In this document: in pieces, positions 2,799-43,100 of the stretch
Layout of the letters: each line of letters begins with the position of its first letter
Numbering within the stretch: position 1 is the stretch's first letter
Assembly (NCBI GenBank): GCA_905178155.1
Contig: CAJINV010000003.1
Coordinates: 2,127,065 to 2,191,064 of the forward strand
Direction: 5' to 3'
Source: Amoebophrya sp. A120
Lineage: Eukaryota > Protista > Dinoflagellata
DNA: 64,000 bases
The notes under the pieces: model-generated
Told to the model about the DNA's origin: nothing
What the model saw: the letters and a program-made list of their open reading frames with translations, nothing else
Databases searched by the model: none
Position numbers and translations under genes: made by a program

Positions 2799-3677
2799 TC
2801 ACGTCATGGAGGTTTTCAGTCTTTTACAGACCGGCCCTTCTGTCTCTGGTTCTGTCTCCACTTCGTCTTCCGCCAGGAGCTCACACAGCTCGCTGCTTTC
2901 GTTCCACTCCTCCCCATGCACTGGCACCACTTCACTCTTCACGAAGTAAACGATGAGCCCATCGTAACGACTTTGGTCGGGGTGCACGTCGCGGATAAGG
3001 CGGCAAGCAGGCAGCAGCAAATGCAACAACTTCACAGGGAGATCGACGTGCCGCAACCACTGTTCCTTACGCTCTTCTACGTCCTGTTTCAACCCTTGCG
3101 CATGCCGCAGTGCGAACGTGGTGATGTGGTCGCTGTGGGAAGTAAAGCGCGTCTGCTCCGGCATGTCCACTGTCGCCTCCCGCCGCGCTTCACTCTTGAT
3201 GTCCCGCAGCCTCAGAACCAACTTCCTCCTTTGCTCCGCGGCGGCACCAGTGCCAATGCAGCGGGCTATCGTGTCCGAATTCATAACGGAGAGACGGACC
3301 TCGTCATCTTCGATCGTGTTGATTAATTCCCGCACACTGACCAACAACGCATACTCCGCGTCGTTCAGAACTCCGCGGCTGTCCATTACCATCATATTCA
3401 ACTGCTTGAGATTTAAACGCGTGCGCTCCAAAAGCTCCTGGCACACAGAACCGTTCTCGCGGGAAATGAGCTCTGCCGCCTCTTGCAGTTTTTGCAACGC
3501 CATCTCGACTGCTGGGCTCCCGGGAGATTTCGCAGCGCCCGGGCGCGAAACTATCTGATAATGGTAGTGCAGGGTGAGGCCCTCGACATCTACCGGGGGC
3601 GGAGGCACAAGGAGGTCACGCGCAGCAGGGCAGGGACACGGCATTTTGATTTTTTCGCGTGGTTGTTCTTGTTTCAC
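2799..3677 (-). CDS. Hypothetical protein, tandem paralogue of 44-2038 lacking the C-terminal repeats
   Basis: 292-aa ORF with clear protein and nucleotide similarity to the N-terminal part of 44-2038. Upstream flanks are also similar (2040-2105 vs 3645-3720). Confidence 0.8.
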   Translation of the reverse strand: MKQEQPREKIKMPCPCPAARDLLVPPPPVDVEGLTLHYHYQIVSRPGAAKSPGSPAVEMALQKLQEAAELISRENGSVCQELLERTRLNLKQLNMMVMDSRGVLNDAEYALLVSVRELINTIEDDEVRLSVMNSDTIARCIGTGAAAEQRRKLVLRLRDIKSEARREATVDMPEQTRFTSHSDHITTFALRHAQGLKQDVEERKEQWLRHVDLPVKLLHLLLPACRLIRDVHPDQSRYDGLIVYFVKSEVVPVHGEEWNESSELCELLAEDEVETEPETEGPVCKRLKTSMT

Positions 3678-3859
3678 AGATAGTTACAGTCTCGAATAAA
3701 AAAAAGCGAGCAAGAGCAACAGCATAGAGTATTTCCAACGATACGTAGTCGTACTCAGACTCATGTCTGAAAGGAGACAATGTTCGAAAAAAAAACCGAA
3801 CAACAGCGGAAGCCCCATGCCCATGTGCTGGCGGGCTACGAGTTCTTTATCTGAGGACA

Positions 3860-7300: not shown

Positions 7301-10300
7301 GCGGACAGTCCTCCAATGCCCGCAGCATCACGGAGCGGTGGACGACCGCGATGTCGCAAAGCGTGTCGCAAACCGCCCCCGTGGTGCGGCCCTCCGACAA
7401 ACCGAGCGCGCACAGTTCGTTCAACAGGTCCCCGTCGGAAACCGTCGAAACAGTTTCGCCGTTGACGGTGACGCGAACCCTCCCACGAAGGATCACAAAC
7501 AGCGCATTCTTCTCCTCCGAGAACCCGCCGTCGAGCCCCGCAGTGCCACCTGGAGTGCCATTATTTTCTCACATGAAAATCAAAATTTTTCGAGAGAATG
7601 AAACACGTAGCAGTACATCCACCCAATTGTGATTGCTTTTGAAGTATTTGCATGCAGTTAACTTTCATTTCAATGATTGCGCCCGCGTTTCGCAATTACG
7701 TCACCACGCAAGAGGTAGTTATTTCAAATGCAGGTAATACGTTCGGCATACAGCACCTCGTCGGAGAACCCGAACCGGCGCTCCTTGTACAGATCAAGAA
7801 TGTAGCAGAATCTTGTGAGTTCCCGCTCACGCATCTCCAGAACGGAGTCTGCCTCAATGTCGCCGCCGGCAGCAGACCTTTTCGAAGAATCGCTGTAGGA
7901 TCGAAACTCTTGCACAAGCTTGATTTTGCTGAGCAAGCTGCTCATGTCCGGGAGCGCCGACAGACTTTTTTCCACAAGCACGCGCTCGATCCGGTGAATC
8001 AGGGAAACTTCCGGACGGGCACGCTTTTTTGCCCCCGCAGCAGCGGACAAAATATCGTGCTCCCGCAGCAAGGCCGCGCGACTCAACATTTGGAACCAGC
8101 AGGTCGTACGTGCACTCAGTGTAACCGTGTCTGCACGACGCCCACCTTGCGAGGGCAACAGGAGCTCAATGCCTCCGTAAATATCGCCGTCGCACATCCG
8201 TCGTATGACCTGTGTGAAAACCGCCGACATGAAGAGAAGCCTTGCCCCACATGCTATGGCGCCGCCTGGGCCTCCACCAGGGCAGGCCCCCGGGGCGCCC
8301 GAAATCGTGCCGATAACACAGGGGCCCACTTCCGATTTTTGGCGGGGCGCGCTTTTTTTTCCTCTGTCTTTCGCCTCGGGAAAGCATGAGGCCTGGCCTT
8401 CAGTCCGCCTCTGCAGGGCCGCCCTTGGTGGCGTCTTTTGCGAGGCCCGAACGTGGGCCGAAATCGGGCCCGCGCGATGCGGGCTCGGTGTTTTTCCGGG
8501 CTGCTGCTCTGTTGGCGCCCCGTTGTGGGCGCCCAAAATCGGCAGAAACCAAGCAAGGCGGTGGGCGCCTCGAACGGGCGCCCCCTTGCCAGCCCCCGCG
8601 CGTCGTTTTATCAAGCGCCAGCCGATAGAATACGAACACCGCTGGGCTTGGTTGGTTGCTATCAACGCCCCGGCTGCTTGATAAGTCAGTGGGCGAATGC
8701 TTTTTATGTGCCGGAAAAAACGCTACCGACCGCTTGAAGCCTGCCGGGCATTTTGCAATATACCTCGCAAAAAAAAACCCGCAAGACCGGAACGTCCGTG
8801 GGCGCGCTACATACAAAAAACCCGCAAGGGGCTACCGGGCCACCGAAACTGCCCGCCGCGCAAGCGGCCAGCGGCCCTACCCTAGGGAATGCGGCCGGCA
8901 GGCGTAGACAAGCTGCGTGCGGGGCGGCCCCTGCGGCCGGCACCTCGCCAGCTGGTTTTCGGGCCCGGGGGAGTGCCACCGAAGGAAGAATCCCACTGAA
9001 AGGCCTTCCCCAAGCAAGGCCTTCCGGGAAGGCCCCGGAAATCCTTCCGAAATCCTTCCCAAATCCTTTCAGAAGGTCCCGGAAACCCTTCCGAAATCCT
9101 TTCCAAATCCTTCCGAAATCCTTCCGCCGGTGCTATGATCGACCGCCCCGGGCAAGTGGCAGACCACAAAAAAAATTTTTCTTGAAAAGTGAATTTGTAA
9201 GGCGCCAAATGTTTCCGGAATCCTTCCGAAATCCTTCCCAATTCCTTCCACTAAGCCTGTTTCGGACTCACCACTTTTTTGCTATTTTTTCATTGAAAAA
9301 GGCCGCCACTTTTTTGCAACTCGCTGGAAGCATTTCGGAAGGATTTCGGAAGGATTTCGAAGCCATTCCGAGGCACATCACCCCCGTGCGGTTTTCCTTA
9401 TTCAAAGGCGCCGCGCCGTTTGTTTCGCCCGGCAGCCGGCACGCAATCTGCCGCGCGCGGCGCCTTGCCGCCGGCGGGCCCACCTGGCCAGGGCCCCAAG
9501 GAGGCGGGTTCGCCGCCTCGCTTTCCTCTGGTTGCCCTGATGGCATGGCCAGAAGGGCGCCGCCCCCCTCACCAAGACATGCCGCGCCCAGAAAAGGCGG
9601 AAGTAAGGCCGCAGGCGTTTTGCTGGCTTGAGGCCAAAAAGCGACGCAACTTCTATGGCCACCGTGCCACCGTGCCTAATGTTATGCACGACGGCACGGG
9701 GGCCGGTGGCAATAACGGCCGCGAGCAGCAGGCCACTTGGTTGGGCTCGAAACGGAAGGCCTTCGCCGCATGCCATGGCTCGGCCCGCCTGGGCCTCCGC
9801 CGGAGCAAGCCATCCACGTGGGCGTCCGGGGTCGGCCCAGTGGCATAATTAGCATGCGGGCCCACTTAAGCTTTTTGGCGGGGCGCGATTCTTTTGTTTT
9901 TTGCCAATAAAAATGCGGCCCCTGCCCTTGAGTCTACCGGCCCGCGCGCCTATGAGGTCGGCGGCCGGTTGGTGGCGCCCTTTGCGAGGCCCGAACCAAC
10001 GTGGGGCAAAATCAAGCCACCACCATGCGGACTCGGTGTCGTTTTCGTGCTGCCGCTTTTCTGGCGCGCCTTTTTGGGCAGCCGGAATCGCTAGAAATCA
10101 AGGCGCGTGGCGCGTCAGAGGGGAGGGCCCCTCTTTTGCCGGCAGGCTCCCTTGCGTCATTTCATCGGCTGGCAATCGCTAGCAGGCTGCTGCGCCGGTT
10201 TGCATTTAAGGCCCCGATCGCTTGAGAGGCGGAAGCGTTTTGCATTTCCGGCCGCCGCTTGAAAACTGCCGGCCGGCATGCGTGATGCCTGGCAGAAGGG

Positions 10301-13300
10301 CCGCCAGGCTAGAGCGGTCCTGGCCTCACTGCATACCAATCAGGCGGACCGATAGCGCGCGGCGCCTGAAGAAAAGACAGCGCCCGGCAATGGCAGGCGC
10401 TTTGCGTGGTTCGCCGTGCCATGCGGCTCAAAAATTGAGCCCGGCGGAATGCTGTGCGTCAGATTATTCACCGCCGTAATATAGATGCGGCCCAGGCCAC
10501 CGCAAGCGCAATGGGGCGCCCTTCAGTTTGCAATCTACTGACGCCCTGAAAAGTTGGGGCGCTGGAAACATTCCGGAAGGTTCTTGGAAGATTTTCCCCC
10601 AGATTGCGTTAACAGAGATGGCCGTTTGTAACATCCGTCGTATGACCTGTGTGAAAACCGCCGACATGAAGAAATGAGTTCTTGTTCAACGATCGCGGAG
10701 ATACATGAAAAGTTTTTGTCTTTGTTGTGCATACAGTTTTATATATATCCTCATGCCTCCTCATGATGTGCTTCTCGGCAAAAACTGAAAATAGCTGCGT
10801 ACCTGCCCGCAAATTTGCACTTCGATCACGCCCGATAGTAAGATCAGTAAGGAAGGGGATCGGTCTTGGTCACGCGTTACGGGCACAATGTCCTCCGCTA
10901 GCGCAATTTCGTCCGTCATGGCGCGGTAGAGCAGCGTTTTGGTCTTCTGACTTGCGCCATGGAACATGGGCGTCAGAAAAAGAGGCGAATCGTCATCCAC
11001 TACTTTCTTCAGGGCGCGTTCGGCTGCGGTCGTGGGGCGAGGACGCCTGCAGCTTTTCGCTCTGGAGGCAGGCGCGTCTGCCGCGAACACGTAGTTTACG
11101 CACTTCTTCACGTTCACGCTGTCGGATAGTGCATACATGCCTTGGCTCGTGGTCCCCTCCTGCGCTCCGTCAACCAGGGCGTTGCTCGCCTCTTGTTCAG
11201 CGGTTGTCGGCTGTGCATGATCACCAGCTGCTGCGTCAACGACATCGCCCGTTCCTGTTTCCACAGGGTCGCTGCCGTCCTGCCCTTCTGAAGCCGCAGC
11301 AGGCTCGTCCCCGGCGCGCCTCTTCGAAGTTTCGATACAATCAGCCCCTTGTGCCATCTCGGCCGTGTACAGAGCAGTTGGCTGAACCCTCACTGCTCCA
11401 CGCCGGCGTGCATTCAGCAAGGTGTTCGTCGGGCGGCCAGGCGGGCTATTGATGTTCTGGCTCGCGGCTGCATTCTCGTCATCCAAATCGTCGGCGCTCC
11501 ACGCGTCCCGGTTGTCGTACATGACCTCGGCAGTGGCGCGCCACGTGCGTCCCTGCGTGCTCATAACGCGTTTGATCACAATTCGCGTTTGCTGCTTCAA
11601 GGAGTTGAGGGCGTTCCGGACGGTTGTTCTCTGCTGGGATATATCTTCATTCTGACCCTCCGCACTGGAATCCTGGTCGTCTTCATCACTGCTGTCCTCC
11701 TCGTCATCTTCGTCTGATGTGCCCTTCTTTTCTGCACCCGATTCGTCGTCGCCGGAACAGCCATCACTCTTGTCGTCTGACGCAGCTGCTCCGTCGTCCT
11801 CCGGCACTGAATTCAGCTTGCAAACCGCATCCGTCGCTCTCGAATGCTTGTTATCACCGCTCGCGGATCTTCTCGAGCTTTTGACACGGACTGTGGCTTT
11901 CTTGTCGCGCCAGGTGCTCTGCTTGCCGGTCGGGTCTTGCGTTTGTCGCTTGCCGAGCTGCGCCTTACGAGATTTCGTACCTCGCTTGTTCGCGGTGTTG
12001 CCACTTTTTCGGTTATTTCCAGTTTCACCATCAACATCGTCATCCTCGTTCTCCTCCTCGTCCTCCTCCTCATCCCCGTCGGGAAACAGCGAGTCCTCTT
12101 TGTTGGTAATATGTCGGCCAGTGTCCGACTCTGAAGCCCCAACCCGGCTTTGCATCGCTTGGCGCTTGCGTCGAGCCACCTCCACGTTTGCTCGCACCAC
12201 CCGCCGCCCGATTTGCTCCAAGTCCAGCCAGGCCCACGTGCGGAAGATCTGCAAAAAGTTGGCCCCCGTCGACACCTTTTGCAGCGCCTTCTTGGATAAC
12301 AAGTAGCAGGCACAGAAGTCCTCGGCGATCACCGTTTGCGTGTACTTCTTCCCGATGTCCAGCACGCTCTGCTCTTCAAACCAGCAATTTTCCGCCAGCT
12401 CCTTCACGAGCACGCCTCGACAGAACGCCAGCGCTTTCCCGAGCCGCAGGAAAAACATGCAGTCGGACGTGGTGTCCTCCTGACAGAGCATCTCGCCGGG
12501 CGTGTAGATTCGCTTTTGCAGCGAGTTCTCCACCTGTTTGAGCGAATGGATCGGCAGCCACTGCGCGAACTCCGGAATGATGTTGGTCAGGTGAAAGGGG
12601 GTGCTGCGAATCAAGTTGTCGAAATTGATTTGTCCCATGGACTGAAACAACTCGAACTCGTCGGGAAACCCCACCGTCAAAAGGTCCCACAGGTCCTCGC
12701 GCAGAATGACGAGACACTCGCACCCGGAGGCGTTCTGCAACGAAGACGCGTCGTGGCTCGAGGTGGACCCACTGCTGCTGCTGTCTGCTTGCTGCCCGTT
12801 GGCACTAGTACCGGTTGTGGTCCCAGCCCCGGTCGAGGCTGTCGCCGAAGATGAGCCCCCGCTTGCTGCATTGTTGTAACCCGCCGTCGGACCTCCAGCC
12901 TTCCCACCACTGGCGGACATACCGCCACTGGTCAGCGCAAGGTCCACGGCGCGCACAGTAGCTGTTCGCTTCCGAGAAATGCCTAACACGGCCAGCTCGC
13001 CGACAATTTCTCCCTCATTCAGCTTCTTCACGACCTCGTTCACGCCAGTCGTCCGGTTGCGCACCTCAATCTGCACTGCCCCCTGAAACACGATGCACAT
13101 AGAATTTCCGTTCGTGTCGCCCTCCTGGAAGATTAGTTCGCCGGGACCGAATCGCTTGCGCAGAGTGCGGCACGAGAGCCGGTACACGAATTCCAGACGG
13201 CAGCCCTCAAAAAACGACATTTTCCGGAACGTATTCACCATGCGGGACTGTTGTGTGTTCATTGGGCTTGAATCCGTCAGAATAGAACAAGAAGCTGCTT

Positions 13301-24690: not shown

Positions 24691-25214
24691 GTTGGCCCTA
24701 GCGGGCTTTTTTGTAGTGACACTTGTCGTCACATTTTTGAAGGTAAAATGGTTCGAAAGAGAAGAGACGCAGGGTCACAGCAGAGGATCACAAGGATTAT
24801 TCACCTTCTTAACATGCTTTCCGTTGCAGTACTCAATCCTTTTCCAACGTGGACCTGTGGGTGCCGAGGTTTATCGAATAGAAAAAAAAAACAACTTTTT
24901 ATTTCGCAGAAATAACTCTGCAATGCATCACGCTTATGACATTCAAGCGGCAGCGGATGTGCTCACAAAATGCTGACATCAATATGAATGTATGAATGAG
25001 TAACTGACGCGAAAGCATGACACAGACTCACGACACGAGGGAAAAAACATGCGACACACGTCGAAATATACTCCACCGCGAACACTCCTTACGCCCCTCC
25101 TGAAGTCAAAGACACGCGGGCAACCCCAGCGCGACTTCCTTCGCGCTATAGATTTGCCCTCCTGTTGGGTGAGGGAGTAACCACTTACAAGCTTCGACCC
25201 CATACTTACACAAC

Positions 25215-27330
25215 CGCTCCCGGTCCAGGCAGAAGGGGGACCAGGCCCCGCGGCGACGCGGGCCCGCGCGGGGCGACGCGATGGCAGCAGCGGAATAGGG
25301 CCGAGTGCTTACTGCGCCCTTCCCGAATTGCCGCAGAGAACGAACGCACGAGGCGCCGGCTTGCGCGCGCCGAAGGCGCGCCCCGCTTGCGGGGCGAGCC
25401 GCGGGCGCCGCGAAAGTGCGAAAAACTACGCCCATACGGGCACGAAAACAGGGCGCATATAGGCGCCCTATTTGCGCCCAGTTTGAAAAATTGCGGCTGG
25501 CCGCGCGCCGTGCCGCAGCCGCAGCATCAAAGTAAAGCGATCGCGTGGAAAAGGCGCGCTCGTGTTTGGCACATGAAGGGAGAAGCCCGGCGAAAAATGC
25601 TGCCAAGACAGGCCGCACGCGAGGGCGCCACGCCCTCGAGGCACCAAAACGACCGCGGCCCTCCCAATCGCCTGCCCGCCCGGTGCGCCAAAACGACGGC
25701 GGCCCCCGGCCTCGCGCCGGAGCACGGAGAAGGCCCGAAACGGGCTGCCCGCATGCGCCCAGCACCAAAGCGATACTGAACGAAGGCGGCTGGCCTCGCG
25801 GCCGGCCGCCTATTCGTGTCGCCTGGAGCAACAGCCCCGGCGCACCATGCGCGGCAGCCGGGCCCAACACACTGCCCCCGCGCGCGCTTGCGTGCTTGCC
25901 TGCTGCTGGCAGGAGTGGGCCCCGCGCCGCCCTACCCGGCAGGGGCGGCCGGCGGGCTTCAGCGCGCCGCGCGCTGCTACGTCTCGCGGCCGTCACCCCC
26001 CGCCAGTAGGTCTCGGCCATCGGGTCCAATGCCTGTCGGCCCACAAACGACGCACATCGCCACGACTGCAATAGCCATCACGGGGTCGCTCTGGGTCAGG
26101 AGCGTCATGCATTTCGCGAATTTGGTCAATCGCGGGGACGGCCCCTCCCTGGGGGCGGCGTCCGGCCGCCAGCCAAGCGCGCGCCCCCCGCCCCTGGGGC
26201 GCCACGGCGCGGCCGCCGCCTGCTTTACAAGCGGCGGGCGGGCTCGCAATACTGGCGCGAACTTTCTTTTTCCCAGAGATTTCGCCAGCGGCCCGGCCGA
26301 GCTCTTTCTGTAGTTTTGCCAGGGCCCTGCTCGCTCGGAGACCCGTTACCCTGTACCAAAATCAGGACAGCCGGGGTTCGGAGTGCAGTAGGCTACCCCT
26401 TCCACCCGGCCCTTCTCATTTGGGGGCCGGGCCGGCAGGTCCGGGTCACCAGTCCCGCGCAGTTTGCTCATTACATAGAAAGCTAAGCAGGAGGCCCGCC
26501 CGGCGATCCGAGAACGAACAGGCGCGCCTCGTGGCCAACGTTCCACCCAAAACCGCCACAGCTATCCGCGCCGCCCAGAGCGCCCCCCCCAATGGGCACG
26601 CGTGCCGTCATCGAAATGCGCGCCCTGCGCAGCCCAGGCGCGCCGCAGTGCCGGCTCCTTTCCATTTCTCGCACAACGAAGGGCCACCCAGCCATGGGGT
26701 TCCGGCAATGGGACTCGCCGGCCCCGGGGCCCGGACTTCTTCGAGGGGCAGGACCTCATAGCGCGAAGCGCGCCCCGGAAACAACGAACGCCGCCCCGCT
26801 GAGGCCGCTCTCCTGCGGCCGGCGGAGACGCCTGCTCTCGGTAGTTCTGCTCCTGCTGGACCTGCACGGGCGCGGCCCCTGTCGCTGCGTACTGGGGGGC
26901 TAGGGTCTCGGCCCCCGCGGGCCGACGGCGATCGCATGCGAGAGGCGGAATGGCCCGCGCAACAGCGCTCGGAGCGGGGGCCGGTGGATTGCCCCGGCGC
27001 GCGGCGGCAGCCTCGGGACGCGCGCTCGCGCCCCGCGCGGCGCTGCGAGTTTTCTCCGCCCCCCCCCGGCCCGCGCGACCGGCGCCACACGGATCGCCGC
27101 GGCCGCTCGCGCTGCCGATGCCAGGCTCTTCGAAAACCGGCCGCGCTCCTTCCGTCAACAGTCCTGGTAAGCCCCTGCCGCATGCACTTGGTAAATGTTA
27201 CGGAAGCCAGTGGGCTCATCTGGGGCCAAATGCGACCCGGGCGGGAGTGCTTGCCGGGGCCACTTGCGGCCCGGGCGGATCTGCGTGCTCGCGCCCCATC
27301 GGCCGGCGACGGCTCCCCCAGAATGGAACT
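25215..27330. other. GC-rich degenerate island (probable decayed mobile element or pseudogene)
   Basis: Same compositional signature and similar length as the other two islands. Protein-like remnant PVQVQQEQNYREQ on the minus strand near 26830-26870. Boundaries approximate. Confidence 0.55.
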
Positions 27331-27798
27331 TAGGTGCAAGGGAAAGCCTTAGAGCCTCAAACAGGTCGGGGAATGAAGCCACTATAGCTAAACGCGACCC
27401 GCGGGTCTTCGTTTTCACGAACAGACACTCCTATCTCTTCAAGTAGTTTGCCATCGCTGTGCACCTGCACGTATGCGCCACAGAACGTGTGCCAGGATGC
27501 GCCATTTCTTTTTGTACTTAGTTCCTTCTGCGAGGGCGAGCACTTGCACTACTAGTAGTAGCATGTATTACAGTTGTTTCATTCAAACTTGATACAACAG
27601 TGTCCTTGCACTTGCAGATGCAGGTACTTCAGAACCATAAGTTCCTCACATACTACAGGCGCAAATGTGTTGCGTTATTCCTATGGATCCTGCTCAGAAG
27701 GTCCCTGTCGTCTCAACGATGAAAAAGTCGCTTTTCTAGATTTCGAGAGTGGCACACATCCAGCCAGACTACGCGATCCACATCGTCCACCTCCCTCG

Positions 27799-30322: not shown

Positions 30323-31270
30323 CTACCTGTCGCTCGCGGAGGTGCCAAGCGACTTGCGGGCCTCATGAGGTTGCTGCAACGTCTTATCTTGGTTTTCTTG
30401 GATGCGTCGCAGATTTTCTGAGATGATTTGGTCAATGCCCTGGTTCTGTGCGTTTTTCGTTCGCGTCGCATCCGCCTGCTCGTCGCGTAAACGGCGCTCC
30501 TGTTGAACGATCAGCTCCCGTTTTCGTTGCTCGTACTCCCGCAGAATCTCCGCTTTTCGATGCTCCCAGCGCTTTGCTAGCTCACGCTGCACTGTTTGTT
30601 GAATCTCGTTTTGGACCTCGGTTGACTTGAGTTTTTCGACCACCTGCTTTTCCAGTTCCTCGGTGACCAGCAGCTCAGACTCGCTCCCAGAAGGGGAGGA
30701 ATCATGTTCCGCTACTCCTTCCTCACTGCTCCCAAGAACATTCTTGGTCGCCAAAGAACTCGCAGGAACGACGTTGGTGCTAGAACCCGACTTGAGCCGA
30801 TCTCTGTTCTGTCCAGGACGCGGGGGCCTCTTGGCATGGTCCTTGTCTCCTTCTTTGTCCCGACGGTCATCTACGACCTTGTCTTTCTCATCCTCGTCGT
30901 CCGGGGATTTATTTCGCTTCTCCTTCTCCCCAGCTTTATTTCCCCTCTTTTCCTCTTTCCGTCTAGCGTCAGTGGCGGCAGAGAGATCGTCGTCTTCCTC
31001 TTTCACCCAGCGCGCGTGACGGGCCGCTCGGTCCAGCGTCGCTCGATCTCGGTCGCCCAGCTGGGGCGATTTTCGCTTTTCCCTTCTACGGTCCTGCCCC
31101 CTGTCCTTTGACACGACCCGATTACGGCGAGGAGGACCCCGATCGGGTGTTCGTCGCCTTCCCGACCGATTGCGATTTCGCCGCTCTCTGCTGATGCTGC
31201 GCTCTCGGTTCTGTCGCTTTCTGTCGTTTCGCCTGCCGCGCGAAGAAGACCTGCGCCGGCGCTTGCTCAT
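30323..31270 (-). CDS. Arg/Ser-rich protein with a Glu/Arg-rich coiled-coil C-terminus, ARGLU1-like (splicing-associated)
   Basis: RS-rich N-terminus. C-terminal VVEKLKSTEVQNEIQQTVQRELAKR...IDQIISENLRRIQENQ resembles the ARGLU domain. The 3' end may be spliced further (CAG|GTAG at ~30325). Confidence 0.6.
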   Translation of the reverse strand: MSKRRRRSSSRGRRNDRKRQNRERSISRERRNRNRSGRRRTPDRGPPRRNRVVSKDRGQDRRREKRKSPQLGDRDRATLDRAARHARWVKEEDDDLSAATDARRKEEKRGNKAGEKEKRNKSPDDEDEKDKVVDDRRDKEGDKDHAKRPPRPGQNRDRLKSGSSTNVVPASSLATKNVLGSSEEGVAEHDSSPSGSESELLVTEELEKQVVEKLKSTEVQNEIQQTVQRELAKRWEHRKAEILREYEQRKRELIVQQERRLRDEQADATRTKNAQNQGIDQIISENLRRIQENQDKTLQQPHEARKSLGTSASDR

Positions 31271-31853
31271 GTTGGTTTCTACTTTTGTGCACTCACCGCA
31301 AAGAACACAAAATCAAAATCTCAAATCGAAATCGATATGTATGTGGTATGATCAGTGTTGGGTAAGTCAGTGTAAGGTAACAAGACAAACACTTTCACTT
31401 TTTTGTTTTCACGCTACTATTCTTGGAGCACTGCGGAGACATTCCAACCTATACGATTGCCGATGCAGAAGGGGGTCAGCATACAAACAAGAAAAAGGAA
31501 CTTTCGGTTGTCGAGCATCCTTTCGTGCCGGCATTTGTGGCTGCGTCGTCCAGTTGTAAAAATATCATGACTAGGACTCGTCAGGCTGAGAACCTAGAAA
31601 AGTGACCAAACGCCAACCAAGGAGACGAGCAAGTCCTAGTCTACCTGCGTGTACGTGGTCGAGCGGGTTGCAGCTTTTCCTTTTTGATTTTGTCAACGAC
31701 ATCGCAATGAAACACTGAAACCTGTTGAATCGCTCCGGACTGGAAAGGCGAACACCTATCTCCGACCTGCAATTCTTTTGTTTCTTTCGCTCTCGCACGC
31801 AGAGAACTATTATCGGTTTGAATCTACTGGATCCTGAACTTGTTTCCGCTACT

Positions 31854-33019
31854 GATGGTCTGAATCTACTGGATCCTGAAAAGACACTAGCGACAATGCC
31901 CGGGTGGAGAACGAACATTGCAGCGATAAGACGATGAAACAAGCACGACGGGCTTCTCTTTTCCTTACCCGCCGCCGAAGAAAGGTTTGTTTTTTTTGTT
32001 TTTTCGCATCCCCAAGAAACTCAATCGTGAAAAAGAAGCTTCTCGTTCGCCCTGTGAGGAGCATATCCCCAGGAAAGGACTATTTTTCTCACGTTTTGCA
32101 CAGTATCCAGCAACATCCGCGATGGCTGCATGTCGATTGCTTCTTCGTGTACCTCGGTCTACTTTTTGCTGGTGCTACTTAGTCTTAAATGAAAGTAGCG
32201 CCGAAGCTAGTCCTGGTTTGTGTACAATGGGGCTACTGTTTCTTATAATTTCTCATCTAATTTTTTCTGTACAGTGTACGTTTCATCCTATTTTTTTTGC
32301 AGCACACGACACTGATTCATTTTAATTTTTCTTCGAAACTATTCAATCTTACATTTTTGCCTGTCGCGTCTGATTTCGATTCGGTCGTAATTGTGACTGG
32401 TGTCTCAAGAACTTCAAGTGGTTGTAAAAAGTCTGCTAAAATTGTGAAACGGATCGATAAGGTGCAAATTGAATTTGGTTTTGGTACAATAGAAATTTGT
32501 TAGCGAAACTGCAATGCAATTTTTGATAAAATTCGTTGTTCAAGCATCAAAGGTAAAGCTGTTGTAAGTCTGTTCGAAAGTTGTCAACGGAGTTGCAAAT
32601 GAAGCTACTGTTGTGTGAAACAGTCTTTGATTCTGTAAAGCGAAACGGTTGTATTCCCATACATAGTAAATGTCTCGATAAATTCAGAATCGTACAGTGT
32701 TGAACTAGTTTTAATTTTTCGGTTAATCCGTGTGGCACGTTACAAATAATGATTTTTTCTGTCGTTTCTATTATCGAATCCGCCTGTCTTTTTCGTATTA
32801 TTCTTCCGACGTAAGTTTCCTCTAAAATCTGCTGAAAATTCCGCGCGGCTATCATTGTTGTTCGCGCGAGTTATTTGAGTTTTAACTGGCAACTGCTGTG
32901 TCCGCTCGTGTTTGATTTTGTTTCTCGTTTTACAGTGAAATTCCTAGCGATAGTTAATTTGGATATGCTGAGAACTAGAAATTGAAGCGTAGCACCTTTT
33001 CATCCTCTTCGGTTATCGG
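31854..33019. mobile_element. ~1.15-kb insertion or duplication segment (element X) between target copies 1 and 2, with an AT-rich decayed reading frame
   Basis: Bounded by target copies. AT-rich 32300-33000. Minus-strand ORF 32547-32855 continues in frame past TGA and TAG stops (…QQLYL*CLNNEFYQKLH…). No family recognised. Confidence 0.5.
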
Positions 33020-33087
33020 GAACTATTATCGGTTTGAATCTACTGGAGTTCAAGTTCAAGTTCAAGTAGTATTTTTTTTCAACGGGG

Positions 33088-34021
33088 GAGGCGGCAGGCT
33101 GCTATCTTCCTATGGCTCTGGATTGGCGGCAACAGGGCTAGAAGCTACTAGATGATACCTAACCTCACCACTAAGCAATAGTAGGGGTAGTGCCTGTCCG
33201 AGCGGGAGCACCCACTCACATATAAACCTATTCTGTCAGGTTCTTACTTTTTAATTTTTTCCTAAGACTTTCCCCTTAGGTCCTTAGGGGACTCGACGAA
33301 CTTTTGCTCGGTAGCGGTAAATGCTTATTCCGCTGACTTGGATCGATTCTTCCATTTGTAAAACTAAAAAGAGCACAGGAAGCACCCAGATGGCCCCTTT
33401 TATTTTTAGCAGCTCGATGACTATATGTATGACCGACGCGAAAAAGTAAACTACCCCTCCTCGACAAAAACTCTCCGAGCGCATGCATGCTTCTTTTCTA
33501 TTGCTACTGATCCGCACAGTAGTCTTTGACAAAAATTTCATAATGATCTTATCTTGCCTTTTCCGAGGGGGCGCTACGCGGAAAACTAATCTAGTGCTCG
33601 GACCTAAAAGGGAGCCACAGGTCTGCATGCAACATAGCAGGTATGGGAAATCGGCATACAAGATGAAATGCCACGCACTGGCAAAAAATAGTGTCTACTT
33701 TGGTCGTGCTTCCTGCTCCCCCTGCGAATCCCCCGGCCGGCACCGCAACCACCGGCGCAACGGCAGAGCGTGGGATGTGGATATTTTAAGCCCAGTCTTG
33801 CTGTGGCCTATTCTATAGCCATCCCGTTATCAACATACCTCCTAGCGGTGTTTAAGGATTAATTTTGGTTAGCACCTGGCGCAACAGGTGAAGCTATAAA
33901 AAACTATTTATAGAAAGAGTTTAAACGACCAGAAAATCACCGCGAGGTTCTAAGTTATAAGGCTAAACAAAAGCTACTTATTTCCAGATCGCCCTATGTT
34001 TCCTTTCTTGCTTGCCGCCTC
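33088..34021 (+). ncRNA. Candidate large structured RNA, module A (~930 nt)
   Basis: Ends pair (gaggcggcagg 33088-98 / cttgccgcctc 34011-21). Many internal helices are conserved or covarying with module B (see findings). Confidence 0.65.
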
Positions 34022-34849
34022 TCGGATTTTTTGTCTCTAAAGCTAAAACTTGTCACGCCACGAACCCTTGCTGCTCACAGCTTCATCAACCTCATCTCCG
34101 TTTTTTATTCGCGATCTGTCCGCTGGTGGTAGTAGTTCTCGATGATGCACCCGCCGCGCAACGCTACGCAGCTGGACATAGTAAAGGGTAGCGGCCCTCG
34201 TCCCACAATTTGTAGACCGCAAAACCCATCTCCTTCGCGCAGGGCAAGCAGATTGGCGCGCCGCATCTAGATCAGCTTCCGGCGTTGCTTCGGCCGGGGG
34301 GACGCAGCCGCGTGGTACTTTGGCCGCTGCTGGGCGAATTTTGTCCGTAGTGTCGCTGTAGATGATCACGCATTCTACGCCCGTCCATCCAAACGCCCTT
34401 CTTGCAGCGTAGAGCCGCCGTGCCTCCTGCGAAAAGTCGCCTCTTCCCGTCAGCCTGAGAAAAAACATATTTTCAAAACAGCCCCGGAGAGCTGCCGTCT
34501 GAATCGAGGATCAATCTCATCTATCAACACAAAAACTATCTCTACCTCCTGTTTATTTTCAATTCTATCAACATTAACTATAAGCAAAACAAAATAATCG
34601 CTTCTGCGCATGACAAAATCGTAAGAATTAGTATCCTTTTCCCGTTTCGCCGCGGCAGGCTTCTTTCCTCTCCCAGTCACTCGGTGTGCCGTCACACGTG
34701 TGCCCTCGTTCCGTTAATTCGCGATCTGCTCGCTGGTAGTAGTAGCCCGCGTTGATGCGCCAGCCACGCGGCGATGTGCTGCATACAGGACTTGCGGGAT
34801 GGAAGCTCTCCCCGTCCTGAAAATATGGGGGGTCGCAGCTTCACGGTGG

Positions 34850-35820
34850 GTGGGTGGCAGGTCACTATCTTTCTATGGCTCTGGATCGGCGGCACCAGGG
34901 CTAGAAGCTACTAGATGGAGCCTAACCTCCCCACTAAGCGATAGCAGGGGTAATGCCTGTCCGAACGGGAGCACCCGTTCAATACAAACCTAAGTTATCA
35001 GTTTTCTACGGTTATGGGCTCATAAGACTTTTCCTCTAGGCTCATAGGGAGCTCAGCGTGCTGTTGCTCGGTTGCGGTGAATGCTTAGCCCGCTGGATAA
35101 AATATGATTTTCGACAACAGTTGCTAGCCGTTATAAAAGCACTCTACTAGAATGAAACACGATTTCCGGATCTCAAACGACTTCGACTTTTATCTGTCAC
35201 TTCATTCGAATCGAAAACAAAAACAAAAACAACTACCCCTCCGAGGACCGAGATTTTATTTTCACCGAGCGCATACAAGCACTTGCACATTTTAGGCCGA
35301 TCCGCACGGCGTCCTTCTCGTCGTTCTCCCAACTCATACAAAAGTCGAATATTAATCGAGGGGGCGCTACGCGGAGTGCTATTCTAGTGCTCGGACCTAA
35401 AAGGGAGCCACGGGCTGACATGCTTCTTTGCAGGTTTAGGGACTTTCGATCATATATCATCACCAAGCACTGGTGTAAGACTATAGTAATTTTCGATCGT
35501 GCTTTCCTGCTCCCCCCGCGAATCCCCCGGCCGGCACCGCAACCACCGGCACAACGGCAGAGCGTGGGATGTTGGTATTCTAAGCCCAGCGGTGCTGTGG
35601 CATAAGTTAAGGTCATCCCGTGCTAGTTGTACTCCTTACGGTGTGTTAATAACTATGATAGTTATCGCCTGGCGCAACAGGCGGAACTGGTAAATTCTAA
35701 CTGTCGAAAGTTTAAGCTTGGTCTGAACACCGCGGAGGTTTAGCTTATTCTTATCATAATTATGAATATCTTCTATATATGCCGCTACTACATTAATTGC
35801 TACTCTTGCCTGCCACCCAC
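34850..35820 (+). ncRNA. Candidate large structured RNA, module B (~970 nt), diverged copy of module A
   Basis: Ends pair (gtgggtggcagg 34850-61 / cctgccacccac 35809-20). Conserved blocks occur in the same order as in A, with unalignable AT-rich linkers. Confidence 0.65.
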
Positions 35821-37166
35821 AGTATACGACATGTGCCTTCCTCAAAACCTCAAACTGCCGCACGGGGGTGCAGCCCGCGCGGCATCCTCGGGTGGCGCGC
35901 CTGGTACGGAAACCCCGCCGCCGTGTGTGTCGTGTCCGCCCTGGTCGACTTCTGTGACCGTGCGTGCAGAGGATGGAATGTTGCTGCTGTGCTCCCGTGA
36001 CGGTAAGGGCCGGGCGCCACGCGCCCGCCTCCGGCTTCGTAGCAGACGGGACCCGCATGTTGCAGGTAAATGGCACCGATGTCATCGCAAGATTCTCCGC
36101 ACCCCCCAGGGCTATATTGCGTCGGTGCCCATGCTCCGCGTCTACCGTGGCGGACATGTGATGCTTGCCCGCAGAGACCATCGGTTTGTGGTCTGCTCCC
36201 CTAAAGGGGTAGATTTCGCCGGTACTCGGTCACAGGGAACTCCAAACCCGGTGGGTCGACGCGGGGACTATTATCGGTTTGAATCTACTGGATCCTGAAC
36301 TTGTTTCCACTACTTTTTATCTCGATCTATTCCATCTTAAGTACTTACATACTTTTATGAAAGTTTCATTGAAAACTCGGCATTCCAAAATAAATTTTTT
36401 GTATCAACAGTCGAAATCGAAATCCATGCAGTTTTATTTTCTCAGAACGTCAAAAAAAGGATCGACGACGTTTTTGCTCTCCTACTTCCCGTTCAGATTG
36501 CGCCGCTTTTTTCGGTATTTTCACCGTTGTTCCAAGACCAATCCAATGATCTGATTCGAACCGAGTCGGTCGTGCTACTGGTGCCGAGATGTGATGAACA
36601 AATGTTGGCTCACCTGCGCTTTCAAGTCCCGGACTCTCAGCCTTGAGGGGCGGACGAGAAATAACTATGCGCACGTAAACTCTAGATACTAACATGGTTC
36701 AACAGCTTCTTTTTCTTTGCGCGTGGGAGGACTTGATTTTAGGTTGTAGAAAAAGTACGTACAGAAAATCGCAATCACCTTCTTCGATACTGAAAGATGA
36801 GGTGACTGATGCAGATGCCTCTTACATGCTTCGCGCCTCGACGAAAACATGCAAGGAGGGGGGTGAGACCAAAAGAGTTGATCGATAAGTTCTTCTATTG
36901 AACCACTCAAAAGCCTAATTCTACTGGGTCGCGACGGTGACATGTAGTACGGAAATGGAAAACCGTATTCGCTACAACAGCGCCGTAATTTTTTTGCAAG
37001 GATTGCATGTACATTTGGCGATGTACTACACTAAGCTTGGCCGCGTCAAGCTTGATCATTTTTACTCGTAAAGCTACTGGCTATACGTTTTTCAATATTC
37101 ATTTATCTTCATGATTCTTTCGAGCGTTTCGTAAACAAGTGACTTCATTTTGGTACAGGTTCTCGC

Positions 37167-40100
37167 CTAGCAAGCCGCAAACACCGCAAATAGTAATGCA
37201 GCTGCGAACGCGTACGTAGCAACAAAGACCGCGTAAAAGGAAAAGTCTCTGCTGTTGTCTTGCTGCCGGCCAAATTCGTTGTGTCGTTCAAGACTTTCCA
37301 CGACCCAATCTCCGACGTGCGTCAGCGGAGCGGATGGTGGCAGCGGAATGTTTTCCCCGCGGACCTCCTTTTCCAGCTCAGTCCAGCGAGCGAGGTGCAC
37401 GATCCTGGACCTGCTCGTGGGAGCCTCGGGCGTCGTCCCTTGGTAGTTGCCGCGTGACCGAGAAAAGAGTGTCATCGAGCTTCTGCGTGCGAGGTTTGTT
37501 TGTGGTTGCCGTGTGAAAATGCCTTCCGCGAGACCCACGTCGTCCGTCGAGAATAGCAGACAGCGCCCCTGCGAAGTAGAATAAAGAGAGAATCGACAAC
37601 CGAAATCTTCCTTCCGACGACCAGCATGCCAGGTCTGCTGACACACGGACGCGCAAACTGTCGGCGACGGTTCCGCGACCGCGTCTTGCTGCTCCCCGGC
37701 CGGGGTTCCCTGCGTAGTTGCAGATGAAACCTTTAGAGAAATCATGCACAACGACGTGCGCCCCTCTTCCCCCGCCTGCGCGTGGCCTCGTACTTGCGTC
37801 GCGTAGTGGTAAACTTCGAGGCCCTCCGCCTTCACAGAGTTGCCCCGAAAGGAGAAGGCTCGATCGTCTTGCGTCAAAAAGTTTTTGCATTGAAGCCGGT
37901 GCCGCTGGAGCACTTGACTGGGATCCGTCTGTCGAGCTGGGCGCGGTTGTTGTCGATCGGGGGAGGTGCTGGGAAAAGTTGAAAACACAAGCGCAAGCTG
38001 CAGTTTTCCGCTGGGTGTACTATCTGGCCGCGGCGCTGGCGGCGACAATTGCACTACACTTGAGGTAGACAATGCCCATACCGGTTGCCTGATGTCATCC
38101 TGCAAGTTGATAACGCTTTGCCCAGGCCCGTGATATTGCGTTTCGTAGCCCCACATCGCCTGCCACGTGCGATTGTCGCAGTTGATGTGCCAAACGCAAT
38201 TAATCACGTTAGGTCGGACAAAAATGACGGGAACGAGTGCCGGCAGCATGAGGGCAAGCAGAACCGCTATCAGTACCCAATTGCGGCGCCGGTTATACCG
38301 CAAAAAAATAGAATCCGTTCCTGCTGCAGTCGACGTGGCCTTCTTGCTTACGCAGAGACTAGGTAGCATGCCCGCACGGAGCCTGCTCTTTTGGGAAAGC
38401 GCTGCAGCCAGCAGAAGCCCGAAAAACGCCTGATTCAAAAATATTAACGCGTTGTCGTAGTTTTGGGTTCGCGGTCCGATTTCCGCTCCCGTCTCGATGT
38501 CGTCGCGGCCGAAGTATACCCGAAAGTAGCCGACGGAATCGCACAGGTTCGCATACAGGTAGGGCACAGCCAAGGTACACATGCCTGCGCTGACCGCTAA
38601 GCCTAGTCGCCACAAAAAATGCCGATGCAGAAACCCGCATTGTGGCGGCGGCACCACAACCGGTTTTCGTGGCAATTGGCAGTCTGCGCTGCAGCTCCGC
38701 GACAGAGCCTTGTGGACTTCTTTGTTTTCATTTTTCGACACTTGTTCAGCTTTAACAGAAATTGTACTATCAGGCGACCCTTTATTCACAGCTGTCTCGT
38801 TCTCCGCTCCCCGTCGCGGCGTTGTCAGATGGCTCTCGGCGGGCTCCGCGAGTGTCATAGCCCAGGGCACGAGCGTCGTAAGGAAGGCGTCTGCGTAGAA
38901 CCAGGCCGCCATGGGAGCGAAGGCGTTGGAGAGGAGCATCAGCACCTTCATGGTGAGCACCCAGACGATGCCGAAACTGATAAACCACAAGAAAATGCGC
39001 ATGCTGGTCTCCAACGCGCAACGGCCCTCGAGGAGCAGCGCGACAATTGCCGCAATGCCGTCCTCGTGCGCTTCGCCGTCCTCCTCGCACGGCGGGCGAC
39101 TCCTCACCATGAAAGGCGCAACGACCGACTGATTGCTGCTTTGCTCCTCATCGTCGTCCTTGTGATCGGTTTTCTTTGCGTAACCGTGGATGAGTGCCAC
39201 GCCGATGTCCGCTTGCTTGAGCGCGACCGTGTCGTTACCCCCGTCGCCGACCATGCCGACCAAACCGTCCCTTTCCGTCTGCTGGATGTGCAAGATCAAC
39301 CGCTTCTTGCCGTCCGGTTTCACGCGCCCGAACACCTTGACCCGCTTCATAAACCAGGTGGGAAACGCTCCCTGCGGCGCCAGCTGCAACAAGTGGTCGT
39401 ACGCCCGCTCGGTCAGTGCCAGATCAGGGCAGTTTTCCCCGCAGTTGGCGCCCTGCGCCCGGATCCACGAGATAAAGTCGGCGTGCCTTTTCGGAAAAGT
39501 TTCCGCGAGGGCAAAAGAGGAATCTTCTTCGTTCTGCTCGCGCGCCACGTGTTCCCAGTGCACGTCAGGGAGACCTAAATTTAGTACCTTTTCATCACAA
39601 ACGAGATCCCCGACGAAAATCCTCTTGGTGTCGTCTAGTAGTTGGCACTCGCGCGCCGCAGTGACGCCCGTGTGCACGGCGTCTCCCGTGATCATGACGC
39701 AGTTCACCCCGAACCGCTTCTGCAGCCGGTCGATGACGTACTTGCTTTCCCGCTTGATGCGATTCTGGAAGAGCATCAGCCCGAGAAACTCCAAATCGCA
39801 CTCCACCTCGTCGCGGTCCATTTTTCTGTGGGATTCTGCGATCGCGGAAGGATTCTGCTCCTGCTGGATCTTCGAGCAAGAAATCGCTGCAGAAGTGGGT
39901 TCTTCATCCAGTCGCCGCGTTGCCACCGCTATTACGTAGAAGCCCCGGTTGCTGTAGACCTTTGTCTGCGCGAACACGTCAGCTGGAATTGTTTCGGGTC
40001 GGCATGCGGCTGCAACGCGTTCCACGGACCCTTTGCAGAAAATCCTTCGGATTCCGCCAGCTTCTTCCACCAACACCGCTTGTCTCTGTCTTCGTTGATC

Positions 40101-43100
40101 AAATTGCCACTTTTGCAAAACGGTGACCTGCAACCGCTCGTGCACGACCTCGGAAGTTGTTATGCTAGTACTCGCTGTATGCAGCAAATTATGCGGGCAT
40201 GCATATCTGCGCACCGCCTCCGCAGCGTCAGCGGCCTCCTGCTGCTCCCTCTCAATCTCATCGGACCACGGACTTCTGCTGCCCGGAGACCGCTCCTCGA
40301 TAGTTCTAGCACCTTCGCCGGACTGCTCTGGCTCTGCGACTACTACTTCCCAGCTATGGAAGCGTCAGGTTTGAAATCGTCACAGTTGAAATAATTTGTA
40401 ATGCATAAAATGCGACACAAAAAGTGACTCTATTGCAGAGGACCCACGGGAGGCAGATTATAGTCCTTGTAAGGGTCAAAAGTTGGACTGCTAACTAGCA
40501 TGACAGAAGGCAGCTCTTTGGCCCTAAACCGCATGACAGACTCGCTTCCAGGACCGGGAAAATTTGTCATGCGCCGACTACAAACTGTAGGTCTAACTGG
40601 TATCCGTTTTATGCATGACAAACTATTTCAACTTTGACGATTTCAAACCTGACACATCCATACCAGCCGATGGCTTCGAACATGCTCTTCTCGACCGGGT
40701 TGCCGATGACCGTTCCGTCCGCTATATCCTGAGTAAAAACATCCCCACACCAGAGTCAACATGGGGACTTTGCAACACAAACCTAGGAGTTTTAGGAGTC
40801 ACGCACGACAAGTTTCAGTCCGTAAGGTAGTGCAAGTTAGCAAGGAAGGCCGCATCACAAATCGACCTTCTGATCCTGTTTACAGCATTACAAGTTCCCA
40901 AACACGACTGAAAATGCCTGTCATGGGGTTGCGCATCACAAATGTTCCTGTCGTGGCAAATCTGCATGACAACTCTGGGGTGGGGACGTTTTTACACAGG
41001 ATACGCCAACTGCGTCACCGAGTGGCAAGACGCCAGTGCAAGCAGCAGCTGCGGCGCCTCTGCGTGCAGCAATGCGTTGAACTCCGCCTTGTTCGCACCG
41101 TACAAGTGCTCGGCCGAGCCGTCCCCCTGCGAATCCACAACGCCCGCGAACTCCATGCCATCGTGCGTGAGCGTACCGGTCTTGTCAAAGCAAAACGTGG
41201 TGACGCGCCCCGCACGAGGAATGCGACTTGTGTCTACGCAAATCATGTTCACCTTCTGCTTTAGTCGCCGTGCGGCCGAAGTGCATGTATTCGAAAGAGA
41301 CACAGGCAAGAACGGGCTCACCAAATTGTTCATCGTTGTCAAAACCTGGGTGATCAGCAAAATTATCGCGCTGGGTGAGTTGCCGGCTTTCACGGCGAAG
41401 CATATCAGCACGAATGGACACCCGATTCCAAGCAGATACCGGAAAAAAATCCCCATTTCATCATCAAACTGGAAGCAATGGGGTTCCACCGTCTGCGCTT
41501 CCAAACCCACCACGTCCGCGTCGTGTACCTGGCAGATGGCAGAATTCTGGGAGGGGGCTCCTGTTTGTCTATTGCTCTTGATCGCATCTGATCGGGCAGA
41601 AAAAACGCCACTTCCTCCTCCTCCAGAAGCTCCAGTTGGGTCGTAATTTTGACCGCTGTACTCGTCTGGAACGCGAACGCCGCCTGAAGAGTGCAACAAA
41701 AGAGCGCGCTGTTCTTCACTCTGCTCGTGCAGTTGAAGATCCTTGTAGCTGGCGCTCGCGCTTAGCGAAAAGTTCTGGTGCGCCGCTGCGTCGCGCTCCA
41801 AATCTGTGTGAGAGGACATTTTTCGCAAGGACGACTCGGGGCAACATCCAGGGGACTGCGCGGTCCCGATGCTTACCCGGCTATCGCCGAACTTCTGCAA
41901 CCGCAAATTCGACGGAGGACTCGTGCTCATCATCTGGGGCGAGGATCGGTCCAGGGGCAATTTCAAACCGCTCCCGCTACCGTACTTCTGCACCGAGTCA
42001 GGTGCGGGGCTGTACAAGTTTTCCAGATTTGTACCCGCCGACGTGCTGCCCTGTAGTCCGTTTTCATCGCCTTCGTCAAGAAGAAGATCCTTGCGCAACA
42101 GCGGAGAAGACGGGTCTCCTTCCTCCATCTTCAGCTCAAAATTGATGGAGTCGTGCTCTTCCTTGAAATCCGTCGGACTACACACGGAAGATGATGCACC
42201 GTGACCGAAATCTTCTGACGCAAAACTCCCATAACTTCGGTGCTGGTGCTGCAGTATTCGAGCGTGTATTTGTTCTGCGGTCGCTTTCTGCTGGAAGTAC
42301 CGCGACGGCCCCTGCCGCATCTCGGAGGGAGACGTGACATTTGACTGCCCCACGATCCGCGGGTCATTCATGGTAATACCTGGGGAGGAAGCGAGCGGCG
42401 AGTAACCGCTTACCAGGCTGCACTTACTGCTTCTTTTACCCGTCGTGCGTCTGCGCGTCGCAGCGAGCTGCAGAGCCGAGTCTACTCGCGCGAGGAATGA
42501 AGACCTTTTGCGCTCCCGAAGGCACGACGACCCTCCCATATTGGTGCAGCTCTCCTTGCTGGTGCGGGGACTTTCTCGCATGTCCGCGAAGGAGGCCGTC
42601 ATCCCGTGGTCAACAAACCTAGGACTGCTCGCGCCGTGCGGGGAACACGCGTAGTACTCACTTTCCGCAATTTGCTCCTCGAGGTCCCCCATATGATGGT
42701 CCTCGTCCAGCAACGCTTGTGCGTCAGACCCTTCCAACAGCATTTGTCGTATGAGGCTGCCGCGCGTCGTGCCAACCCCGATCGCGTAAACCACGGCGAC
42801 ACCACCTCCGGAAAAAACTTGCGTGCCCGCGAACAGAATGTGCTGCTTCATGGAGGACAAGTCCGTCACGCGCTGCGGAGGTGCGGAAGTATTGTTGAAA
42901 GTAGTCGACATCATGTTCCTCGTGTTCGCTACCTGCATCATGTCGTCTCTCCTCCTGTCATCAGCCATCAACCCTACTTCTATCAACTCGCTCTTCTGTA
43001 CGCTGAACTTTTGCACGGGTGTCGCCTCCCCGGTCAGCGCGGCCTCGTTCATGATCAGGTTGTCACCCTGCACAAGAATGCAGTCGCAGGTCAAAGTCAT

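Follow-up and report, generated by a model that had tools for sequence, protein, structure and literature searches.

What kind of molecule could account for two diverged copies of a module of about 950 nt that lie between two genes in the nuclear genome of Amoebophrya sp. A120, a marine parasitic dinoflagellate? The modules, A and B, occur in a stretch of 64,000 nt (contig CAJINV010000003.1 of assembly GCA_905178155.1, positions 2,127,065 to 2,191,064 of the forward strand), which we call the window and whose numbering is used throughout; a WD40 protein encoded there matches one of Amoebophrya sp. A120 at 100% identity. A preliminary description had read them as a candidate undescribed large RNA, covarying and rich in pseudoknots, in a mobile element. 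The analysis presented below indicates that the modules are real and probably constrained at the RNA level, their blocks being kept by selection on RNA structure. They are probably an undescribed large RNA, for which catalysis is a lead only; that they form a permuted group-I-like self-processing RNA of a mobile element is a tentative proposal from sequence comparison.

Two diverged modules with block-wise conservation

The modules and their best-conserved parts are as follows.

33088..34021, plus strand: module A, 934 nt, termini joined in an 11-bp stem (blastn, folding and helix comparison)
34850..35820, plus strand: module B, 971 nt, termini joined in a 12-bp stem (blastn, folding and helix comparison)
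33564..33618, plus strand: second conserved block of module A, with identical runs of 19 and 29 nt; 35357-35411 in B; pairing ambiguous
33724..33778, plus strand: near-invariant core of module A (alignment, RF00028 consensus), with a 5-bp hairpin like P6 of group I introns (33736-56), then a strand like J6/7 and the 5' strand of P7 (33757-67)
35518..35572, plus strand: near-invariant core of module B (alignment)

Their relationship as diverged copies, proposed in the preliminary description, is borne out by two blastn blocks, 33090-33335 against 34853-35095 (78.9% identity, E 3e-52) and 33564-33888 against 35357-35681 (76.8% identity, E 3e-57), with 65% identity across the 946 columns of the whole alignment; all 16 of the 16 motifs of that description that were looked up occur where it had placed them. 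The homology ends at the terminal stems, and the inner blocks are conserved better than the module ends. In the core, for which a near-invariant region of about 60 nt had been claimed, a single position of 33724-33778 differs between the copies, leaving identical runs of 33 and 21 nt. Identical runs of at least 9 nt number 18 and are scattered over the whole module between unalignable linkers; those of at least 17 nt number five, whereas 5000 column shuffles gave 0.19 on average and never more than 3. The linkers had been called AT-rich; their GC content is 28-43%, that of the cores 55-56%, so two of the six are just mildly AT-rich.

A decayed protein frame, which could have explained such blocks, finds no trace in either module: every one of the 12 frames carries 8-31 stops, in agreement with the earlier statement that no open reading frame (ORF) is shared, and the substitutions in four ungapped blocks lack a third-position bias. 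Block-wise conservation beyond that of the shuffles, together with the stops and the absence of codon phase, therefore indicates that the pattern exceeds chance and is not a protein frame in decay.

Compensated stems and the folding signal

Helices were compared between A and B in 36 hand-picked rows, chosen for kept pairing; we call a change two-sided if both partners have changed. The closing stems, said to differ in sequence yet to pair, do both: of the five outer pairs three have changed on both sides, one of the six inner pairs shows a one-sided change from G-U to G-C, and none of the 11 is mismatched; the stem of A holds an internal G-T pair. The hairpin at 33873-90 (35666-83 in B), likewise described as compensatory, has one two-sided change, and it forms part of a longer feature:

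33867..33895, plus strand: compensated hairpin of module A, with one two-sided and two one-sided changes; 35660-35688 in B

Pairing is kept through two two-sided changes in a hairpin near 33669-83 and through two changes in each of the hand-picked helices 33867/33895, 33120/33513 (here one-sided), 33518/33575, 33523/33569 and 33835/33851. Many internal stems carry one-sided changes of the G-U type. The letters just ahead of the two modules (33083-33089 and 34844-34850) are alike and could base-pair with the core's C-rich strand at 7/7 positions in A and 6/7 in B; the functional 5' end may thus start about 5 nt ahead of the terminal stem.

The pseudoknot map of the preliminary description lacks support: none of its helices differs between the copies, so that they show no covariation, and they have rival partners. 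Among the crossing helices at 33454-33601, the C-rich strand 33452-58 pairs perfectly with 33183-89, and the G-run 33565-69 alternatively pairs with 33523-27, with two one-sided changes. The proposed loop-loop pair taagc (33172)/gctta (33323) is similarly invariant, and 33323-27 also closes a local hairpin with one one-sided change.

The consensus fold of the core reaches a z-score of -3.8 on the plus and -3.7 on the minus strand, with 0 of 40 shuffles as low on either, whereas four control tests on a coding duplicate gave -1.5 to +0.6. Folded singly, module B scores a z of -2.36 against its shuffles. As to the strand, candidate helices common to both copies number 23 on the plus and 27 on the minus strand, which leaves it unsettled by count; plus is favored by G-U pairing in the terminal stem and the first stem, and we take plus to be the probable RNA strand. 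In sum, selection on a non-coding structure, probably at the RNA level, in a mobile insert is supported by the blocks, the lack of a frame, the compensated stem, the core z of about -3.8, the missing Rfam match and the direct repeats described below, but the pseudoknot map drops out of the argument.

A possible group-I-like core in reversed order

The absence of known ribozyme signatures, asserted earlier, holds for group II domain V, RNase P/MRP and the hammerhead, but not entirely for group I introns, as a pair resembling P6, J6/7 and P7 is present in reversed order. It was sought with a descriptor derived from the RF00028 (group I) consensus as printed in a phage T4 control; the helix numbers are those in use for group I introns. 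The core shares with that consensus a C-rich strand after AAU, the 5-bp P6-like hairpin beginning with GC (33736-56) and a 3-nt linker ending in CA; next comes the strand A-C-G-G-C-A (33760-65), which contains both the bulged C and the guanosine-site G. The partner of this strand lies at 33191-95, upstream by 570 nt and not downstream, and pairs with it in both copies, with a G-C guanosine pair as in group I introns. Ahead of the partner stands G-G-U-A, as in J8/7 (G-R-U-A in group I introns), and after it, at the place of P9, a compensated hairpin.

33183..33195, plus strand: strand of module A like J8/7 and the 3' strand of P7, the sole shared descriptor match; 34946-34958 in B
33200..33217, plus strand: 7-bp hairpin at the P9 place of module A, with one two-sided change and one mismatch in A; 34963-34980 in B

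The two P7-like strands deviate from the consensus at two positions, and do so complementarily. Exactly one descriptor match is common to both copies (33760/33190), on the plus strand, in reversed order and in the most conserved block; in shuffles a match of any kind, on either strand and in any order, arose in 10, 5 and 3 of 1500 at P6 lengths of 2, 4 and 5, respectively. A second group I mapping, with 33475/33601 as P7 and 33120/33513 as P3, was rejected, having no P4-P6 after that P3 and no descriptor match.

We propose that each module, read on the plus strand, probably forms a large RNA, and we predict a core that resembles a group I ribozyme in circularly permuted order. In this model the core hairpin, together with the strand that succeeds it, would pair with 33190-95 into a guanosine-binding helix like P7, in which G33762 would face C33194 next to the bulged C33761, and the paired module termini would mark the permutation point; we offer this arrangement as possible, with the odds against it. 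Such a core may still work like a group I intron: it would cleave or back-splice the transcript of its own element, so that an internal piece is freed or circularized, and might thereby help the element to persist in a genome full of intron-making elements. The full proposal, namely a group-I-derived ribozyme of some 950 nt that is circularly permuted in nature, is present twice in a target-specific mobile element of a eukaryotic nuclear genome and back-splices or cuts the transcript of that element, would seem unlikely as it stands.

Points that weigh against these readings

Several results count against selection on RNA structure or against the permuted group-I-like core. Regarding the former, the covariation evidence comes from two copies only, and formal covariation from these is weak (P 0.01-0.4); the word covarying, used earlier, gets weak support from unbiased tests. 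Pairs that were predicted in one copy and are changed in the other were kept in 8/14 (P 0.07) and 15/30 (P 0.08) cases on the plus strand; the minus strand was similar, with 9/19 and 10/24 kept and broken-pair P values of 0.011 and 0.018, and one of four controls reached P 0.045. Two-sided counts within the consensus folds are not above those of shuffles. The consensus fold of the 5' domain is better on the minus strand (z -3.8, 0/40 shuffles as low) than on the plus strand (z -1.5, 2/40), and a GC-rich repeat used as a control reached z -2.9 on one strand. Module A folded singly is no better than its shuffles (z -0.31). The longest identical run, of 33 nt, by itself lies within the range of the shuffles, whose maximum was 39.

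For the core, the descriptor was written after the resemblance had been noticed and other families had been tried, and it detected one of the two T4 control introns. The last P7-like pair is mismatched in both copies, the J8/7-like strand 33183-89 has the perfect 7-bp rival partner at 33452-58 mentioned above, and the P7-like 5' strand can pair locally or with the 3' terminal strand instead. On hand assembly, the conserved P3-J3/4-P4 arrangement could not be placed, helices like P3, P4 and P5 being found separately but overlapping or non-adjacent. By eye, without a systematic scan, no candidate for a P1 with U-G and a terminal G is conserved and consistent in both copies. Finally, RF00028 itself gave no match at E up to 10.

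Known families and possible relatives

A scan of the whole window with Rfam, as proposed in the preliminary description, matched 0 of 4227 families at cut-off, and the region and each module gave unrelated weak matches only at E up to 10. The sensitivity of RF00028 is limited, as the two phage T4 introns of the positive control score 40.3 and 35.7 bits against a cut-off of 50. The modules are not group I members, because P3 and P4 cannot join canonically, the order of P7 is reversed and RF00028 does not match; they further differ from group I introns in that the P7 strands lie 570 nt apart and the module termini pair together.

Other families fare no better. Group II, canonical or permuted, was rejected: a descriptor of domain 5 (D5; a hairpin with an AGC/CGC triad and a 2-nt bulge) had eight matches, none at homologous places in both copies, and no Rfam family matched. 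The GUGYG motif occurs on the plus strand 0 times in A and once in B and on the minus strand twice in A and once in B, with no D5 beside any. RNase P/MRP was set aside with CR-I absent on both strands, CR-V-like matches unshared and no Rfam match; hammerhead and U1 motifs are absent, and Sm and box C motifs are not shared by both copies. ARAGORN found no tRNA or tmRNA. A pair of long terminal repeats (LTRs) was rejected on account of the patchy divergence and differing ends. The telomere repeats of A120 are TTTAGGG/TTTGGGG (PMC7789003); a telomerase RNA was rejected, with a longest plus-strand template match to these of 5-6 nt and a 9-nt minus-strand match at 35433-41 in B only. The latter is a single telomere-like unit (35433-35441) in a variable region of B, which on the minus strand gives a 9-nt template-like stretch.

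Among known systems with a comparable architecture, GOLLD, ROOL and OLE are large ornate bacterial RNAs whose size class, many short conserved helices and likely long-range pairings recur in the modules; these differ from them in having no Rfam match, a eukaryotic nuclear setting and no prokaryote or phage relative in our scans. Natural permutation is known in group II introns: a large natural ribozyme can have its domains reordered, with internal splice sites and no ORF (PMC8637638). These introns set a precedent but are bacterial and defined by D5 and D6, whereas the modules lack a shared D5-like hairpin and a group II family match. A further precedent, from the nucleus of a protist, is the lariat-capping ribozyme GIR1, whose group-I-derived core has altered its topology and catalyzes a new reaction (PMC2219692). 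It differs in being about 180 nt long, in being nested in a twin-ribozyme intron of the rDNA that also has a homing endonuclease, and in retaining the P3-P7 pseudoknot and the P4-P6 connection; the modules measure 950 nt and have no rDNA and no endonuclease.

Searches for relatives of the modules gave nothing or matches expected by chance. The viral, metagenome and prokaryote scans need exact words and cover collections poor in eukaryotic DNA, and so speak little to other Syndiniales. Among viral contigs, four of six scans had no match and the loci of the remaining ones (8/8 and 1/1) match in the seed only, as do both metagenome loci (2/2, within coding-like DNA) and all 17 of 17 loci in prokaryote genomes. 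Blastn against phages gave nothing for B and nine short matches at E 1-3 for A, and against plasmids two short matches only. Neither nhmmer nor an unfiltered covariance model found a third copy in the window, the next matches of the latter being the modules' own reverse strands. Four motifs had no match in 12 of the 14 supplementary files of PMC12130899, files 13 and 14, which possibly hold introner sequences, lying outside that search; among the open-access papers listed in our literature searches there was no report of this RNA.

The carrier element and its neighborhood

The modules lie between two minus-strand genes, an arginine-rich ORF at 30323-31270, which has no Pfam match, and a P-type ATPase at 37167-40214. 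Direct repeats of 31 nt (33017-47 and 36262-92, 30/31 identical) bracket a 3.2-kb insert with the order A, X, X', B, Y, and repeats of 48 nt (31806-53 and 36267-314, 47/48 identical) bracket a 4.4-kb stretch enclosing it.

31806..31853, no strand: T1, left copy of the 48-nt direct repeat, likely the target-site duplication of the outer insertion (47/48 against 36267-36314)
31854..33016, no strand: AT-rich interval from T1 to T2, which likely inserted earlier at this same target (GC 0.39 at 32001-33000)
33017..33047, no strand: T2, 31-nt direct repeat, likely the target-site duplication of the 3.2-kb insert (30/31 against 36262-36292)
33048..33079, no strand: left junction, three tandem 6-nt units and then a T run (inverted pairs I7 and I9, 84% complementary)
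34069..34212, no strand: segment X, coding-like but decayed, a duplicate of X' (aligned with a score of 218, whereas 300 shuffles reached 113 at most)
34687..34827, no strand: segment X', stopping 22 nt ahead of module B (X/X' alignment)
35821..36261, no strand: segment Y, GC-rich, with open frames without relatives (sequence search), perhaps continuing X'
36262..36314, no strand: T3, right repeat copy, common to T1 and T2 (direct-repeat comparison)

Because the direct repeats of T1 and T2 overlap at T3, the arrangement suggests two successive insertions at one target, in an order given by the overlaps. T1 is partially echoed at 31860-31880. As the flanking repeats are near-identical and the modules deeply diverged, we infer that the 3.2-kb unit moved recently and that modules A and B are old. 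The 6-nt units at the left junction are an inverted copy of the direct repeat's own continuation. The three tandem units at 33048-33066 end in TCAAG, like the spliced leader of dinoflagellates, whose final five letters these are in PMC7789003, and could be relics of the leader instead of a fold-back. A 19-nt stretch at 34652-34670, 35 nt ahead of X', is 84% like the start of module A and is perhaps a relic or chance.

Differences between X and X' fall on the codon positions as 2/5/9. Neither the RNase-H-like look of the minus frame of X nor the DDE-like look of its plus frame went beyond impressions, and both were dropped; X has no Pfam match, and its frame has none in the atlas or among longer proteins. 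The plus frame of Y has 0 matches among 1.84 billion representatives; its minus frame gave a structure model with a predicted local distance difference test (pLDDT) score of 0.29 and no usable matches. Two open frames of 31854-33016 have 0 Pfam matches, a frame running through module A has 0 relatives, and across the region 0 of 14 frames match Pfam at E up to 10. None of the Pfam, atlas, representative-protein and structure-model searches of the frames found a reverse transcriptase (RT), endonuclease or capsid near the modules. A promoter and terminator scan, of a kind ill-suited to eukaryotes, stayed at chance level.

Alternative explanations

With a probability that we put in the same low range as that of the permuted group-I-like RNA, the modules might instead have no connection with group I and be a large structured RNA that serves the mobile element in cis. 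It would, for example, recruit an RT or endonuclease produced elsewhere or give ribosomes an internal entry site for the frames after each module, the likeness to P7 being chance. All evidence for constraint holds equally under this explanation, and it accommodates the failure of the group I P3/P4 junctions. Long direct repeats with an inverted junction piece would fit RT-driven insertion as in non-LTR elements. A120 has LTR and non-LTR retroelements (PMC7789003). However, no RT, endonuclease or capsid frame lies nearby, and it is left unexplained why the most invariant block fits P6-J6/7-P7 with a complementary partner. A further alternative draws on the introners of the same genome: each module would belong to the A120 inverted-repeat introners, though of unusual length, and would be excised by the spliceosome, with paired ends that draw the exons together and an inner structure that merely helps. 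Intron-making elements abound in A120, and many of them have paired ends (PMC7789003, PMC12130899); about 30% of the non-canonical introns in this genome carry inverted repeats of 8-20 nt and direct repeats of 3-5 nt (PMC7789003). Inverted repeats of this length occur at the termini of both modules (11 and 12 bp), with a direct repeat of 3 nt near the ends of A and an imperfect one of 5 nt near those of B. Module B has GT/AG ends on the plus strand, with GT at 34846, 34850 and 34854 and AG at 35821-22; the homology halts at the terminal stems and B may interrupt a paralogue of X. Against this, the A120 non-canonical introns average 240 nt (PMC7789003), a quarter of the module length, the modules have a conserved interior, with inner blocks kept better than the ends, no exon lies upstream of A and the flanking genes are on the minus strand. 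The continuity of X across B is not significant in an anchored test (62/500 and 56/500 shuffles at two gap settings, a third being without gain); a short window gave 0/300 shuffles but had been picked after the fact. On balance, we hold the introner explanation to be rather improbable.

Two further explanations are a host RNA and a duplicate without RNA function. A closing stem, conserved blocks and AT-richer expansions are typical of housekeeping RNAs, and the modules could be diverged paralogues, beyond the reach of Rfam, of a host RNA such as RNase P/MRP RNA, telomerase RNA or the U1 of A120 in a duplicated segment. U1 is undetected in A120 (PMC7789003). We nevertheless give this little chance, considering the missing Rfam match, the unshared RNase P, U1, Sm and box C motifs, the telomere template match of 5-6 nt and the location in a recent repeat-flanked insert. 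Hardly more probable is an old duplicate without RNA function, such as a decayed LTR pair or a DNA-transposon relic, with a patchiness due to gene conversion or DNA constraint and stems that are DNA inverted repeats. The weak formal covariation and unclear strand preference would be expected of it, and symmetric DNA ends likewise change in a compensated fashion. It is harder to reconcile with 18 identical runs of at least 9 nt over the whole module between unalignable linkers, or with the G-U-type one-sided changes in many internal stems and the G-T pair in the terminal stem of A.

Other elements in the window

The window contains further duplicated or GC-rich elements. At 8194-10672 lies a second element, a 2.4-kb GC-rich insert between perfect 42-nt direct repeats, which look like target-site repeats and are very long for such; inside it are an internal duplicate (8239-8553 against 9759-10102, 67%) and, at 9035-9367, short satellite arrays in inverted orientation. 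The 2.3-kb intergenic stretch at 25100-27420, with 67-69% GC and no long exact direct repeat in our scan, is likely another mobile element. At 1250-2096 and 2877-3704 lies a tandem duplicate of about 850 nt with 80% identity and minus-strand coding, which served as a control. A 56-nt inverted repeat (40355-40410 and 40607-40662, 91%) encloses about 200 nt between two ORFs of the P-type ATPase gene; the unit as a whole (40355-40662) looks like an A120 inverted-repeat introner. Between 47001 and 54000 the GC skew is positive, as opposed to negative over most of the window, and the long ORFs are still on the minus strand.

Significance

To our knowledge, large structured RNAs are rarely found and the catalogued ones are nearly all bacterial. 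The permuted intron-exon design is used for making circular RNA. In A120, more than 60% of the introns are non-canonical and U1 is undetected, according to PMC7789003. A structured RNA of 950 nt in its nuclear genome would indicate an RNA machinery so far undescribed. If the predicted permuted group I site is real, nature would have its own form of the permuted intron-exon design; and if the modules are indeed a permuted group-I-derived ribozyme, they would be to group I what the permuted introns are to group II, and would constitute a new class of large ribozyme.

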